Origin: Escherichia coli | GTDB taxonomy: Bacteria; Pseudomonadota; Gammaproteobacteria; Enterobacterales; Enterobacteriaceae | Reading direction: 5' to 3' (one strand) | Assembly: GCF_002854065.1 (NCBI RefSeq) | Contig: NZ_CP024147.1 | DNA length: 64,000 nucleotides | Part shown: in pieces, positions 30,201-35,468 of the stretch | Layout of the letters: every line of letters starts with the position of its first letter | How positions within the stretch are numbered: the first letter of the stretch is position 1 | Made by a program: the position numbers and the translations under genes | The notes under the pieces: generated by a model | What the model was told of the DNA's origin: nothing | Database searches by the model: none | The model's input: only the letters and a program-made list of their open reading frames with translations

Positions 30201-31884
30201 ACGCATCTTCCCGACGATGATTAGCGGACAGGAGCGTCTTGCCTGTATGGATGATGCCGCCAGGCTGCGCGATGCCCTCGGCGTACAACTACCAGAGTCT
30301 CTGCCAGAGATTTATTTGCATAGAGTCAGTTACCCGCTTCGCGACCTCTTTCTGCGCTATCTCCGGGCTCATGCTCTGGTCACGGCTGAACAACTGGCTC
30401 ATGAGTTTAGTCTCGGTATTGCCATTGTCGAAGAGCAGCTTCAGCAACTGCGCGAACAGGGTCTGGTGATGAATCTGCAACAAGACATCTGGGTGAGCGA
30501 TGAAGTATTTCGTCGTCTGCGTTTGCGCTCGCTGCAAGCCGCCAGAGAAGCGACGCGTCCCGTTGCAGCCACGACCTATGCGCGATTGCTGCTGGAACGT
30601 CAGGGCGTATTACCCGCCACCGATGGTAGCCCGGCGCTCTTTGCCTCAACATCGCCAGGCGTTTATGAGGGCGTGGATGGCGTGATGCGGGTGATCGAAC
30701 AGCTTGCCGGAGTCGGTTTACCCGCCTCACTCTGGGAAAGCCAGATCCTGCCTGCCCGCGTACGCGACTATTCGCCAGAAATGCTCGATGAATTACTGGC
30801 AACCGGAGTGGTTATCTGGTCGGGACAAAAAAAGCTGGGTGAAGATGACGGCCTGGTGGCACTGCATCTACAGGAATATGCCGCAGAATCGTTCACTCCC
30901 GCCGAAGCGGATCAGGCGAATCGTTCGGCGCTGCAGCAAGCGATAGTCGCTGTTCTGGCTGACGGAGGAGCCTGGTTTGCACAACAAATCAGCCAACGGA
31001 TACGCGACAAAATCGGCGAATCGGTTGATCCCTCGGCACTGCAAGAGGCGTTATGGGCGCTGGTCTGGCAAGGCGTCATCACCAGCGATATTTGGGCACC
31101 GTTACGCGCCCTCACCCGCAGCAGTTCCAACGCACGCACCTCAACTCGCCGCAGTCACCGGGCTCGTCGTGGGCGTCCTGTCTATGCACAACCCGTCTCG
31201 CCGCGGGTATCTTACAACACACCAAATCTGGCTGGACGCTGGTCGTTATTGCAGGTGGAGCCACTAAACGATACCGAAAGGATGCTGGCGCTGGCGGAAA
31301 ATATGCTCGACCGCTACGGCATCATCAGTCGTCAGGCGGTGATAGCCGAAAATATCCCTGGCGGGTTTCCATCGATGCAAACGCTTTGTCGAAGTATGGA
31401 AGATTCCGGGCGAATTATGCGAGGTCGTTTTGTAGAAGGTCTGGGTGGCGCGCAATTCGCTGAACGTCTGACTATTGACCGCTTGCGCGACCTGTCGACA
31501 CAAGCCGCGCAAACGCGCCACTATACACCAGTGGCGCTCTCCGCCAACGATCCGGCTAATGTGTGGGGAAATCTTCTGCCCTGGCCTGCACATCCGGCAA
31601 CGCTGGTACCAACGCGTCGGGCGGGTGCGCTGGTGGTCGTTTCTGGCGGCAAATTGTTACTCTATCTGGCGCAAGGTGGCAAAAAAATGCTGGTCTGGCA
31701 GGAAAAAGAGGAATTACTCGCCCCAGAGGTTTTCCACGCGCTGACTACCGCACTGCGTCGCGAACCACGGCTGCGCTTTACGCTAACAGAAGTGAATGAT
31801 CTACCGGTCCGGCAAACGCCGATGTTTACGCTGCTGCGTGAGGCGGGATTTTCAAGTTCGCCACAAGGGCTGGATTGGGGATAG
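27268..31884 (+). CDS. lhr: large ATP-dependent helicase Lhr (superfamily 2)
   Basis: 1538-aa ORF; Walker A APTGSGKT, DEVH box; recognised. Confidence 0.95.
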   Translation: MADNPNPSSPLPDVFSPATRDWFLRAFKQPTAVQSQTWHVAARGEHALVIAPTGSGKTLAAFLYALDRLFREGGEDTREAHKRKTSRILYISPIKALGTDVQRNLQIPLQGIADERRRRGETEVNLRVGIRTGDTPAQERSKLTRNPPDILITTPESLYLMLTSRARETLRGVETVIIDEVHAVAGSKRGAHLALSLERLDALLHTSAQRIGLSATVRSASDVAAFLGGDRPVTVVNPPAMRHPQIRIVVPVANMDDVSSVASGTSEDSHAGREGSIWPYIETGILDEVLRHRSTIVFTNSRGLAEKLTARLNELYSARLQRSPSIAVDAAHFESTSGATSNRVQSSDIFIARSHHGSVSKEQRAITEQALKSGELRCVVATSSLELGIDMGAVDLVIQVATPLSVASGLQRIGRAGHQVGGISKGLFFPRTRRDLVDSAVIVECMFAGRLENLIPPHNPLDVLAQQTVAAAAMDALQVDEWYSRVRRAAPWKDLTRRVFDATLDMLSGRYPSGDFSAFRPKLVWNRETGILTARPGAQLLAVTSGGTIPDRGMYSVLLPEGEEQAGSRRVGELDEEMVYESRVNDIITLGATSWRIQQITRDQVIVTPAPGRSARLPFWRGEGNGRPAELGEMIGDFLHLLADGAFFSGTIPPWLAEENTIANIQGLIDEQRNATGIVPGSRHLVLERCRDEIGDWRIILHSPYGRRVHEPWALAIAGRIHALWGADASVVASDDGIVARIPDTDGKLPDAAIFLFEPEKLLQIVREAVGSSALFAARFRECAARALLMPGRTPGHRTPLWQQRLRASQLLEIAQGYPDFPVILETLRECLQDVYDLPALERLMRRLNGGEIQISDVTTTTPSPFATSLLFGYVAEFMYQSDAPLAERRASVLSLDSELLRNLLGQVDPGELLDPQVIRQVEEELQRLAPGRRAKGEEGLFDLLRELGPMTVEDLAQRHTGSSEEIASYLENLLTVKRIFPTMISGQERLACMDDAARLRDALGVQLPESLPEIYLHRVSYPLRDLFLRYLRAHALVTAEQLAHEFSLGIAIVEEQLQQLREQGLVMNLQQDIWVSDEVFRRLRLRSLQAAREATRPVAATTYARLLLERQGVLPATDGSPALFASTSPGVYEGVDGVMRVIEQLAGVGLPASLWESQILPARVRDYSPEMLDELLATGVVIWSGQKKLGEDDGLVALHLQEYAAESFTPAEADQANRSALQQAIVAVLADGGAWFAQQISQRIRDKIGESVDPSALQEALWALVWQGVITSDIWAPLRALTRSSSNARTSTRRSHRARRGRPVYAQPVSPRVSYNTPNLAGRWSLLQVEPLNDTERMLALAENMLDRYGIISRQAVIAENIPGGFPSMQTLCRSMEDSGRIMRGRFVEGLGGAQFAERLTIDRLRDLSTQAAQTRHYTPVALSANDPANVWGNLLPWPAHPATLVPTRRAGALVVVSGGKLLLYLAQGGKKMLVWQEKEELLAPEVFHALTTALRREPRLRFTLTEVNDLPVRQTPMFTLLREAGFSSSPQGLDWG

Positions 31885-31891
31885 AGAAAGG

Positions 31892-31921
31892 ACTGACGGA
31901 TGCCCGTTCGCATCCGTCAGT
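31892..31921. terminator. bidirectional terminator hairpin between lhr and grxD
   Basis: actgacggatgc-ccgttc-gcatccgtcagt perfect 12-bp stem. Confidence 0.7.
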
Positions 31922-31934
31922 ATTGCAGGACGGA

Positions 31935-32282
31935 TTATTCCGCGTCCGGCTCTTCAGACTTGTATTTAGCGGCAGTTTCTTTGATCAGCTGCTGCAGTTC
32001 ACCACGCTGATACATTTCGATCACGATATCACAACCGCCTACCAGCTCGCCGTCAACCCACAGTTGCGGGAAGGTCGGCCAGTTAGCATATTTCGGCAGT
32101 TCCGCACGAATGTCCGGATTCTGCAGAATATCAACATAGGCAAAACGTTCGCCACATGCGGCAAGCGCCTGGACTGCCTGGGCAGAGAAACCGCAGCTCG
32201 GCAGTTTCGGTGAACCTTTCATGTACAGCAGGATCGGGTTTTCAGCAATCTGGCGTTGGATTTTTTCGATAGTGGTGCTCAT
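31935..32282 (-). CDS. grxD: monothiol glutaredoxin 4
   Basis: 115-aa ORF with CGFS active site (LPSCGFSAQAV); recognised. Confidence 0.95.
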   Translation of the reverse strand: MSTTIEKIQRQIAENPILLYMKGSPKLPSCGFSAQAVQALAACGERFAYVDILQNPDIRAELPKYANWPTFPQLWVDGELVGGCDIVIEMYQRGELQQLIKETAAKYKSEEPDAE

Positions 32283-32616
32283 TGTCTTGCTTCCTCAAAC
32301 TTCTTTACGGCAGTAATCTGACATTGTAGCGGGTCAGTGCGGCATCGGAAAATAACATTTTCATCACGCTTTTGCTATTTTATCCCTTTGCTCTATTTGT
32401 TGCATTTCAAATGTTCGTTTCTTCCCTGATGCACGGCAAACTGGCGTATTTATGACCATTTTTAGCTTTCACTGCTGCATTTTTTTGCGCTCGCCAACGA
32501 AACGTATTTTTTAACAATAAAAGCTATTAACTTTCTCTTCTTCTATGCATTAGAATCATCAAGTTTTGTAAATCAGACGCAGGCATGATAGACCTGCCTT
32601 AACAGAGGGACGCTCA

Positions 32617-33444
32617 GTGGCGCGGATAAACCGTATTTCGATCACGCTCTGTGCTTTACTTTTTACCACCCTGCCTTTAACGCCTATGGCCCATGCTTCA
32701 AAGCAAGCCAGGGAGAGTTCTGCTACCACTCATATCACCAAAAAAGCAGATAAAAAGAAAAGCACGGCAACCACCAAAAAGACCCAGAAAGCCAGCCAGA
32801 AAACAGCGAAAAAAGCCGCCAGTAAAAGTACGACCAAAAGCAAAACCGCTTCTTCCGTTAAAAAATCTTCCATTACCGCTTCTAAAAACGCCAAAACTCG
32901 CAGCAAACATACCGTCAATAAAACGGCCTCAGCCAGCTTTACCGAAAAGTGTACCAAACGTAAGGGCTATAAATCGCATTGTGTGAAAGTCAAAAATGCA
33001 GCGTCAGGAACCCTTGCCGACGCACACAAAGCGAAGGTGCAAAAAGCCACAAAAGTGGCAATGAATAAACTGATGCAGCAAATTGGTAAGCCATATCGTT
33101 GGGGTGGCAGCTCACCGCGTACCGGTTTTGATTGCAGCGGCCTGGTTTATTACGCTTATAAAGATTTGGTGAAAATTCGTATTCCGCGTACGGCGAATGA
33201 AATGTATCACCTGCGTGATGCAGCGCCAATCGAACGTAGTGAACTGAAAAACGGCGACCTGGTCTTTTTCCGTACTCAGGGACGCGGTACAGCCGATCAT
33301 GTCGGCGTATATGTCGGCAACGGCAAGTTTATTCAGTCACCGCGTACGGGTCAGGAAATTCAAATCACTTCTCTCAGTGAAGACTACTGGCAGCGCCACT
33401 ATGTTGGCGCTCGCCGGGTAATGACCCCAAAAACACTTCGCTAA
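32617..33444 (+). CDS. mepH: NlpC/P60-family peptidoglycan DD-endopeptidase MepH with Lys/Thr/Ser-rich low-complexity linker
   Basis: 275-aa ORF; signal peptide; C-terminal NlpC/P60 domain (GFDCSGLVYYAY... H...); recognised as ydhO. Confidence 0.9.
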   Translation: MARINRISITLCALLFTTLPLTPMAHASKQARESSATTHITKKADKKKSTATTKKTQKASQKTAKKAASKSTTKSKTASSVKKSSITASKNAKTRSKHTVNKTASASFTEKCTKRKGYKSHCVKVKNAASGTLADAHKAKVQKATKVAMNKLMQQIGKPYRWGGSSPRTGFDCSGLVYYAYKDLVKIRIPRTANEMYHLRDAAPIERSELKNGDLVFFRTQGRGTADHVGVYVGNGKFIQSPRTGQEIQITSLSEDYWQRHYVGARRVMTPKTLR

Positions 33445-33571
33445 AACTTTACCCTGTTGTTACGGCAACAGGGTAAGTTCATCTTTTGTCTCACCTTTTA
33501 ATTTGCTACCCTATCCATACGCACAATAAGGCTATTGTACGTATGCAAATTAATAATAAAGGAGAGTAGCA

Positions 33572-34153
33572 ATGTCATTCGAATTACCTGCACTACCATA
33601 TGCTAAAGATGCTCTGGCACCGCACATTTCTGCGGAAACTATCGAGTATCACTACGGCAAGCATCATCAGACTTATGTCACTAACCTGAACAACCTGATT
33701 AAAGGTACCGCGTTTGAAGGTAAATCACTGGAAGAGATTATTCGCAGCTCTGAAGGTGGCGTATTCAACAACGCAGCTCAGGTCTGGAACCATACTTTCT
33801 ACTGGAACTGCCTGGCACCGAACGCCGGTGGCGAACCGACTGGAAAAGTCGCTGAAGCTATCGCCGCATCTTTTGGCAGCTTTGCCGATTTCAAAGCTCA
33901 GTTTACTGATGCAGCGATCAAAAACTTTGGTTCTGGCTGGACCTGGCTGGTGAAAAACAGCGATGGCAAACTGGCTATCGTTTCAACCTCTAACGCGGGT
34001 ACTCCACTGACCACCGATGCGACTCCGCTGCTGACCGTTGATGTCTGGGAACACGCATATTACATCGATTATCGCAATGCACGTCCTGGCTATCTGGAGC
34101 ACTTCTGGGCGCTGGTGAACTGGGAATTCGTAGCGAAAAATCTCGCTGCATAA
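33572..34153 (+). CDS. sodB: iron superoxide dismutase
   Basis: 193-aa [23 protein letters not shown]...; recognised. Confidence 0.97.
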
Positions 34154-34263
34154 TAACTGATGGCAAATGCAGCATTGCCTGATGCGCTTCGCTTACCATG
34201 CCAACGCGGATGAGGCGTTAACAGCGCATTCGGCAAGATAAATCGCACGTTGTCAGCAACTGT

Positions 34264-34295
34264 AACGCAGAAGGTTATCCTTCTGCGTTTTTGTT
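34264..34295 (+). terminator. rho-independent terminator after sodB (abuts convergent ydhP)
   Basis: aacgcagaagg-ttat-ccttctgcgtt hairpin followed by tttgttt. Confidence 0.75.
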
Positions 34296-34298
34296 TAA

Positions 34299-35468
34299 TT
34301 AGCTGTTAGCAACGCAAACTGTTTCAGGTTGTTTTCTGGCTGACATAAACACCAGCAATAATGCCAGTCCCGCGACAATCGCCCCCATCACCGGCACAAA
34401 GCTGTATCCCAGCCCAGCGGAAATTACCGCACCACCAGCGGCTGCTCCCAGCGCATTTCCAAGATTAAAGGCACCAATATTGACTGATGAAGACAGACCT
34501 GGCGCTTCACTGGCGACACGCATCACGCGCATCTGTAACGGCGGTACGACCGCAAAGGTTGCAGCGCCCCACACCACCATGCTAATAGCTGCGCCGAACT
34601 CATTGCGGGCCAGGAACGGGATTGCCAGCATAATCACCATCAGCAGCAACAAAAAGCCTTTCAACGTGCCGTTAACTGAACGATCTGCCAGTTTGCCGCC
34701 GAGATAGTTACCGATAGAGAATCCGACACCAATCAGCACCAGCATTGCCGTGACGAACACCGGTGTTGCGTGGGTAATACTTTGCAGTACCGGAGAGATA
34801 TAGGTGTAGAGAGTAAACATTGCACCAGCTCCCAGTACCGTCGTCAGCAATGCAGACAGCACCTGCGGACGCATTAATACCGCCAGCTCTTTTTTCACTT
34901 CAGGTCGTGCCCCTGCACCACCTTTAGGTAATGAGAAGAACAGACTTACCATTGAAATCACTCCCAGCCCCGCCGTTGCCAGAAATGACATCCGCCAGCC
35001 GATGGTTTCACCCAACCAGGTCGCCGCCGGCACGCCACCGATATTTGCCAGGGTTAACCCCATAAACATAGTGGCAACTGCGCTGGCCTGTTTATGTTTT
35101 GGCACCACGCTTGCAGCCACGACTGAACCCAAACCAAAAAATGCTCCATGATTCAGGCTGGTCAAAATGCGTGAAAGCATCAGGGTCATATAATCCGGCG
35201 CGATGGCGGAAAGTACGTTGCCGAGCGTGAAAATTGCCATCAGGAAAATCAACGCACTGCGGCGGGCACGATGAGAAAGTAGAAGCGTCATCAGCGGCGC
35301 GCCAACCATTACGCCAACTGCATAGGCACTGATTAACATTCCGGCAGCGGGAATCGAGACATCCACACCGCGCGCAATGACGGGCAACAAGCCCATTGGC
35401 GAGAACTCCGTTGTCCCGATACCAAACGCGCCAATCGCCAGCGCCAGCAACGGATAGTTAATTTTCAT
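34299..35468 (-). CDS. ydhP: MFS transporter
   Basis: 389-aa 12-TM-like ORF; recognised. Confidence 0.9.
   Translation of the reverse strand: MKINYPLLALAIGAFGIGTTEFSPMGLLPVIARGVDVSIPAAGMLISAYAVGVMVGAPLMTLLLSHRARRSALIFLMAIFTLGNVLSAIAPDYMTLMLSRILTSLNHGAFFGLGSVVAASVVPKHKQASAVATMFMGLTLANIGGVPAATWLGETIGWRMSFLATAGLGVISMVSLFFSLPKGGAGARPEVKKELAVLMRPQVLSALLTTVLGAGAMFTLYTYISPVLQSITHATPVFVTAMLVLIGVGFSIGNYLGGKLADRSVNGTLKGFLLLLMVIMLAIPFLARNEFGAAISMVVWGAATFAVVPPLQMRVMRVASEAPGLSSSVNIGAFNLGNALGAAAGGAVISAGLGYSFVPVMGAIVAGLALLLVFMSARKQPETVCVANS

Follow-up and report, generated by a model that had tools for sequence, protein, structure and literature searches.

A 12-bp in-frame length polymorphism at a short direct repeat in the low-complexity linker of the Escherichia coli peptidoglycan endopeptidase MepH

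MepH (YdhO) is a soluble periplasmic enzyme (PMC7516022), and its DD-endopeptidase function is redundant with that of MepS and MepM (PMC7516022, PMC11211486). For the K-12 protein, DD-endopeptidase activity on 4-3 cross-links is credited to literature cited in PMC11211486 and PMC11789061. MepH is a substrate of Prc/NlpI, its level being set by Prc together with the NlpI adaptor and BipP (PMC8996183, PMC11789061). MepS (Spr), a paralogous NlpC/P60 DD-endopeptidase, has a disordered segment ahead of its catalytic domain, as MepH very probably does, and Prc degrades the two enzymes alike with NlpI as adaptor (PMC8996183, PMC11789061). The disordered N-terminus of MepS is the NlpI-binding element (PMC11211486). 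This segment, for which NlpI binding has been demonstrated, comprises about 36 residues after the lipobox and is not of lysine-rich low complexity, whereas MepH is soluble and has a polycationic linker of about 80 residues.

Bacillus subtilis LytE and Listeria p60/Iap also place a C-terminal NlpC/P60 domain after a spacer, one rich in Ser/Thr/Lys/Asn, and the HMM alignments of MepH with LytE and with the p60 model continue through its linker. Hydrolases of the LytE/p60 type carry LysM or SH3 wall-binding modules, and p60 has true tandem repeats; MepH has neither. The Thr-Asn repeat region of Listeria p60/Iap is strain-variable. In the literature searched, no study of the MepH linker or of its 271/275-residue polymorphism was found.

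The stretch of E. coli DNA analysed here, referred to as the window, is 64,000 nucleotides long and contains mepH together with its usual neighbours. The features of the gene, its surroundings and its protein are as follows:

31935-32282, minus strand: grxD, from the ORF list, adjoining mepH as in K-12
32527-32556, plus strand: sigma-70-like promoter match upstream of mepH, weak (one site found against 1.9 expected by chance)
32617-33444, plus strand: mepH (ydhO) coding sequence, an 828-bp ORF with a GTG start, 275 aa, the long allele
32617-32697, plus strand: probable Sec signal peptide, residues 1-27 (ending ...PMAHA, followed by SKQ), a hydrophobic core and then an A-x-A motif
32698-32943, plus strand: complete spacer from the signal peptide to the Cys motif, about 80 residues
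32740-32943, plus strand: linker core, residues 42-109, K/T/S/A-rich and polycationic, delimited by composition and entropy
32944-32994, plus strand: conserved Cys-x9-Cys segment, residues 110-126 (EKCTKRKGYKSHCVKVK), a predicted beta-hairpin closing the linker
33013-33084, plus strand: predicted long helix, residues 133-156, N-terminal to the catalytic domain (AF2 models)
33085-33417, plus strand: NlpC/P60 catalytic domain, residues 157-267 (PF00877, 125.8 bits against a cut-off of 23)
33448-33477, plus strand: intrinsic-terminator-like hairpin right after the mepH stop codon, a 13-pair stem and then a T-rich tail
33572-34153, plus strand: sodB, from the ORF list, the other neighbour of mepH, as in K-12

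An earlier note on this DNA had named the gene MepH and given it 275 residues, and the identification holds: the ORF at 32617-33444 is 100% identical to the mepH annotated by RefSeq in eight complete E. coli genomes (WP_000101186.1, 'peptidoglycan DD-endopeptidase MepH'). RefSeq annotates the identical start in identical and related genomes. The 24 kb around the gene are 100% identical to strain CUWW06, mepH is matched at ≥95% identity in 5,425 of 5,426 complete E. coli genomes, and the gene order lhr-grxD-mepH-sodB-ydhP is met in the window, in K-12 and in 13 other genomes.

Both the hydrophobic core and the A-x-A motif at the N-terminus are conserved across orthologues; residues 1-27 are a probable Sec signal peptide, with the cleavage site placed from the sequence. 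At the other end, NlpC/P60 (residues 157-267) is the sole Pfam domain. C173 (FDCSG) and H228 (DHVGVY) align with the catalytic Cys and His of the Spr/MepS structure 2k1g, while the third catalytic position is Gln240 in MepH (FIQSP, window 33334-33336) as against His131 in MepS (FVHAS). C173, H228 and Q240 are invariant among 89 MepH orthologues, and the catalytic arrangement would be Cys-His-Gln rather than Cys-His-His. NCBIfam has no MepH-specific model; the best match, to the MepS equivalog NF008096, scores 85.5 bits, short of its cut-off of 186. Since K-12 MepH likewise falls below this cut-off, the sub-threshold score reflects the library and not the window protein, which on sequence grounds is MepH, a member of the NlpC/P60 (C40) peptidase family.

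C112 and C122 lie within a conserved EKCT-RKG-K--C-K motif, a predicted beta-hairpin between linker and helix, whose description was not found in the literature searched. C122 is invariant and C112 nearly invariant in the 89 orthologues, and strands 108-113 and 121-126 are present in both AF2 models. The segment could form a periplasmic disulfide loop. PDB homologues start aligning only at about residue 127-155.

The region between signal peptide and Cys motif is of very unusual composition. A K/T/S/A low-complexity linker had been noted at about residues 25-115, and the count bears this out: K/T/S/A make up 78% of these residues (32690-32960) and 84% of the core at residues 42-109 (K 29%, S 19%, T 19%, A 16%; net charge +20), against 23% of the catalytic domain. 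Within the linker, the Shannon entropy of 30-aa windows is as low as 2.2 bits, versus 3.5-4.0 bits elsewhere. Searches of Pfam and PDB gave no domain and no homologue covering it. AF2 models were built with alignments of 24 and 89 sequences (mean pLDDT 45 and only 50) and used solely for the relative contrast between linker and domain: with the 89 orthologues, residues 32-107 have neither helix nor strand and a pLDDT of 27-31, followed by the beta-hairpin (108-126), the helix (133-156) and a catalytic domain at pLDDT 55-77.

The evolutionary behaviour of the linker points the same way. In 103 cluster representatives whose anchors could be recognised, 46 to 97 aa separate the signal-peptide site from the Cys motif, and this spacer has low sequence identity but retained composition (K+R fraction 0.22-0.33, median net charge +20). 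From the Cys motif to GKPY there are always 45-48 aa, and 96 of the 103 have a catalytic part of 119 aa. Linker length thus drifts while composition and the lengths of the flanking modules hold, which favours constraint by composition, not by sequence. The linker is very probably intrinsically disordered, a conclusion resting mainly on composition and evolutionary behaviour. Its suspected length variability is also real, both within E. coli and between genera.

Against this background, the difference from K-12 is simple. K-12 mepH shares its start codon with the window allele and is 816 bp long, encoding 271 aa (RefSeq WP_000101193.1), the length given for K-12 in the earlier note; W3110 and RV308 agree. 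K-12 MepH also shares the grxD-mepH-sodB locus, signal peptide, Cys motif and NlpC/P60 domain, but is without Q57-K58-A59-S60. Pairwise alignment of DNA and of protein gives one internal in-frame gap of 12 bp / 4 aa (gene columns 168-179) inside the linker, so that the small in-frame indel thought possible there is present; the reference is a gapped protein of 271 aa, not one of 275 aa with an identical linker. At the protein level, ...KKTQKASQKTAKK... in the window corresponds to ...KKTQKTAKK... in K-12, and this gap and A/T at residue 99 are the only differences. Besides the indel there are 13 nucleotide differences, and DNA identity is 97.0% with the gap counted. The indel and its repeat lie at:

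32784-32795, plus strand: 12 bp absent from K-12 (CCAGAAAGCCAG; codons Q57-K58-A59-S60), located by alignment, with a placement that slides over 7 bp
32784-32790, plus strand: left copy of the 7-bp direct repeat CCAGAAA; no direct repeat in the linker is longer at 12-bp spacing
32796-32802, plus strand: right copy of CCAGAAA, of which a single copy is left in the short allele

Tandem Repeats Finder found no tandem array over mepH at a minimum score of 30, and the adjacent 12-mers CCAGAAAGCCAG and CCAGAAAACAGC agree at just 8 of 12 bases, which together argue for a deletion between short direct repeats and not for a change in the number of repeat units. The idea of a slippage-prone linker therefore stands in part: deletions at short repeats do occur, but tandem-repeat slippage is not borne out by Tandem Repeats Finder and the site is not hypervariable.

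The direction of the change can be read from outgroups. MepH of E. albertii is 275 aa long and aligns ungapped with the window protein (…NKASQKTAQK…), and the orthologues of Citrobacter, Salmonella and Kosakonia have residues at all four indel positions. As the outgroups occupy these positions, the long form is ancestral and the K-12 form a derived deletion. With a probability of roughly 85%, the window carries mepH of ancestral length and K-12 a common derived 12-bp deletion at a direct repeat in the disordered linker. This corrects the earlier note in one respect: the mutation is carried by K-12, not by the window, and the K-12 reference has the derived, not the ancestral, form of mepH.

The proposed course of events is as follows. 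The A/C-rich DNA encoding the linker is dense in short direct repeats. In an ancestor of the K-12-type (A/B1) allele, the 12 bp between the CCAGAAA copies may have been lost by replication slippage or microhomology-mediated deletion. Loss of Q-K-A-S would have given the 271-aa protein, and both lengths are today common and stable.

The frequency of the two alleles was determined in 5,425 complete E. coli genomes with mepH, using junction-specific queries of 42-48 bp that are unable to seed on the other allele; queries of 149-161 bp were dropped for this census, since megablast trimmed at the indel instead of gapping and the identity bands mixed the classes. The long junction is present in at least 1,847 genomes (34%) and the short junction in 3,526 (65%). 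The junction types are:

Window-type long junction: 1,656 genomes
Long junction carrying a G-to-A substitution within the segment (O111/O26-type, WP_000101183.1): 190 genomes
Strain-042 long variant: 1 genome
Short junction: 3,526 genomes

The two lengths make up about 99% of the 5,425 genomes and track haplotype background; other mepH lengths are singletons or near-singletons. The 275/271-aa difference is ordinary natural variation between common, stable alleles, both already catalogued in RefSeq. A contingency (phase- or length-variable) locus was considered and rejected, given the absence of a tandem tract and the two dominant lengths that follow lineage. For biology at large the case has little importance; it is a tidy example of how a short direct repeat can give rise to an in-frame indel polymorphism in a probably disordered linker. 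Its practical meaning for annotators and pan-genome pipelines is that 271 versus 275 aa marks neither an error nor a different gene.

The census also yielded some copy-number and loss variants. In one record a plasmid carries a mepH copy with the long junction, and there are two copies of the short allele in one genome. Assigned to neither junction were 52 of the 5,425 genomes, two of them with a disrupted gene (ST2747 and TUM2805). In ST2747, a 225-bp deletion (L020:460-960; window 32594-32818) removes the mepH RBS, start, signal peptide and half of the linker; in RefSeq this mepH is annotated as a pseudogene. In TUM2805, just the last 116 bp of mepH are left. Loss of mepH in two natural isolates fits the reported redundancy with MepS and MepM.

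Whether the deletion arose once or more often turns on O157:H7. In 15 genomes aligned over about 5 kb around mepH, two backgrounds carry the short allele, namely the K-12-like A/B1 haplotype, whose long counterpart is still extant in O111:H11, and the O157:H7 haplotype. To either side of the indel, the short allele of O157:H7 (strain 155) has derived SNPs in common with the window's long allele (G at -162, TA at 294/295, A384, A408, A435). Across 8.6 kb, the window is the sequence nearest to O157:H7, with 72 differences versus 120 between O157:H7 and K-12. Moreover, all four combinations of indel state with the TA/CG site 115 bp away exist, and the deletion sits at the best microhomology for its spacing. 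A short allele on this background makes recurrence possible, hinting at a hot spot or at selection, and a loss of the same 12 bp at least twice, in an A/B1-type ancestor and in the O157:H7 lineage, falls only slightly short of an even chance.

These data are explained equally well by import of a K-12-like patch no longer than 455 bp. There is no other diagnostic SNP between -162 and +294 of mepH, and the gene's 3' part shows clear mosaicism at positions 693-732, so that short recombination tracts are plausible here. Furthermore, in the 42-bp junction no more than 14 of the 3,526 short-junction genomes carry a SNP, and the matches listed include no short allele of B2 type. For the short allele of O157:H7, a second independent deletion and an imported patch fit equally, and recurrence of the 12-bp deletion is at best rare.

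The linker also tolerates larger deletions: rare E. coli alleles lack 27-102 bp, in most cases between microhomologies. E. coli-labelled MepH protein clusters include proteins of 262, 261, 244, 241, 239 and 210 aa. The DNA of five rare length alleles was retrieved and the deletion endpoints were examined:

30-bp deletion, between copies of the flanking 9-bp repeat ACCGCTTCT, in a rare 261-aa allele (P0010, L021)
32845-32853, plus strand: left copy of the 9-bp direct repeat
32875-32883, plus strand: right copy of the 9-bp direct repeat
27-bp linker deletion: 5-bp microhomology
96-bp linker deletion: 5-bp microhomology
81-bp linker deletion: 3-bp microhomology
102-bp linker deletion: 1-bp microhomology, chance level

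The 12-bp and 30-bp deletions each lie at the longest direct repeat for that spacing anywhere in the linker, and 3-4% of possible linker positions reach their degree of microhomology. Part of the rare length alleles come from draft or metagenome assemblies, and some may be assembly errors.

A different kind of variant is found in GCA_900448615.1 (L026:301-1128). Its 275-aa MepH (P0013) combines a -1 change in an A6 run with a +1 change 153 bp further downstream, in an A4 run; the sites correspond to window 32740-32745 and 32893-32896. Between them the +1 frame is read for 51 linker codons, giving a K/R/P-rich stretch of net charge +26 before the frame is restored. This may be a homopolymer sequencing error or a real compensated frameshift.

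The linker might act by bulk properties, namely length, flexibility and positive charge, as a flexible tether or electrostatic handle. Such a handle would serve for peptidoglycan or envelope partners, perhaps for NlpI/Prc turnover as a recognition or initiation region. If the linker works by bulk properties, altering 4 of its roughly 80 residues would be near-neutral, and functional near-neutrality is what is assumed here. A stronger proposal, that the 12-bp loss is recurrent and linker length is also selected, tuning the presentation of MepH to peptidoglycan or to NlpI-Prc, is improbable; were it true, the 271/275-aa and shorter natural alleles would differ in enzyme stability or reach. The natural series of 275, 271, 262, 261, 244, 241 and 239 aa offers ready variants for probing the role of the linker.

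The polarity of the indel could in principle be the reverse, with the 12 bp an insertion by imperfect tandem duplication in the window lineage and the 271 aa of K-12 ancestral. The adjacent 12-mers do share 8 of 12 bases, but units so diverged are no fresh duplication, and no tandem repeat is reported by Tandem Repeats Finder. The four residues are also present in E. albertii and more distant orthologues, and the E. coli haplotypes that carry the long form are widely different (B2, D, E and O111/O26-type B1). An insertion is very unlikely, and a derived deletion in the K-12 form is the preferred reading.

The linker DNA also gives rise to long alternative open reading frames on both strands:

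32693-32986, plus strand: 97-aa alternative-frame ORF, judged spurious
32698-32910, minus strand: 70-aa antisense ORF, judged spurious
32730-32957, minus strand: 75-aa antisense ORF, judged spurious

These three overlap the linker, and P0013 does read 51 codons of the +1 frame by way of its two compensating 1-bp indels, yet it is highly improbable that they encode real overlapping proteins. The linker coding DNA is 42% A, 29% C and 13.7% T, and because it is T-poor, stops are depleted on both strands, each stop triplet containing a T as written on the sense strand (TAA/TAG/TGA, or TTA/CTA/TCA for antisense frames): in the 271-bp region, two sense frames have no stops and two antisense frames have one or two. 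The 13.7% T on the sense strand suffices to explain the open frames. An Rfam scan of 31800-34300 gave no match, nor was any other signal found for these ORFs, and P0013 is a single assembly with both indels in A-runs. The earlier description of the ORFs on both strands as spurious is thus upheld, and they are compositional by-products of T-poor DNA.

That the 271/275-aa difference is an annotation, start-codon or sequencing artefact is scarcely credible: older database entries with other starts (e.g. the 257-aa cluster P0007) and the error-prone A5-A6 homopolymers of the linker would allow it, but both alleles are annotated with one GTG start, the gap is internal and 12 bp long, and it recurs in thousands of independently finished genomes.

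Some observations concern the neighbouring genes. In four B2-type genomes (SaT040, FEX669, AHB2 and 25POL; L011, L014, L015 and L018), all that is annotated of the 4.6-kb lhr helicase gene next to grxD are two small pseudogene fragments, with rnt immediately upstream. Full lhr is kept in the window, upstream of 31935, and in genomes of A/B1/D/E type. In the grxD-mepH spacer (about 32365-32517, minus strand), a 153-nt 'hypothetical protein' (WP_001299740.1) is annotated in K71-77 and WP2-S18-ESBL-08; the same ORF is left unannotated in other records of near-identical sequence. On the other side, the sodB-ydhP spacer (window about 34160-34300) is length-variable among L005-L018: the near end of ydhP falls at locus coordinate 5671, 5683, 5687 or 5760 at equal mepH offset, pointing to a small variable insertion that may be a REP-like element.
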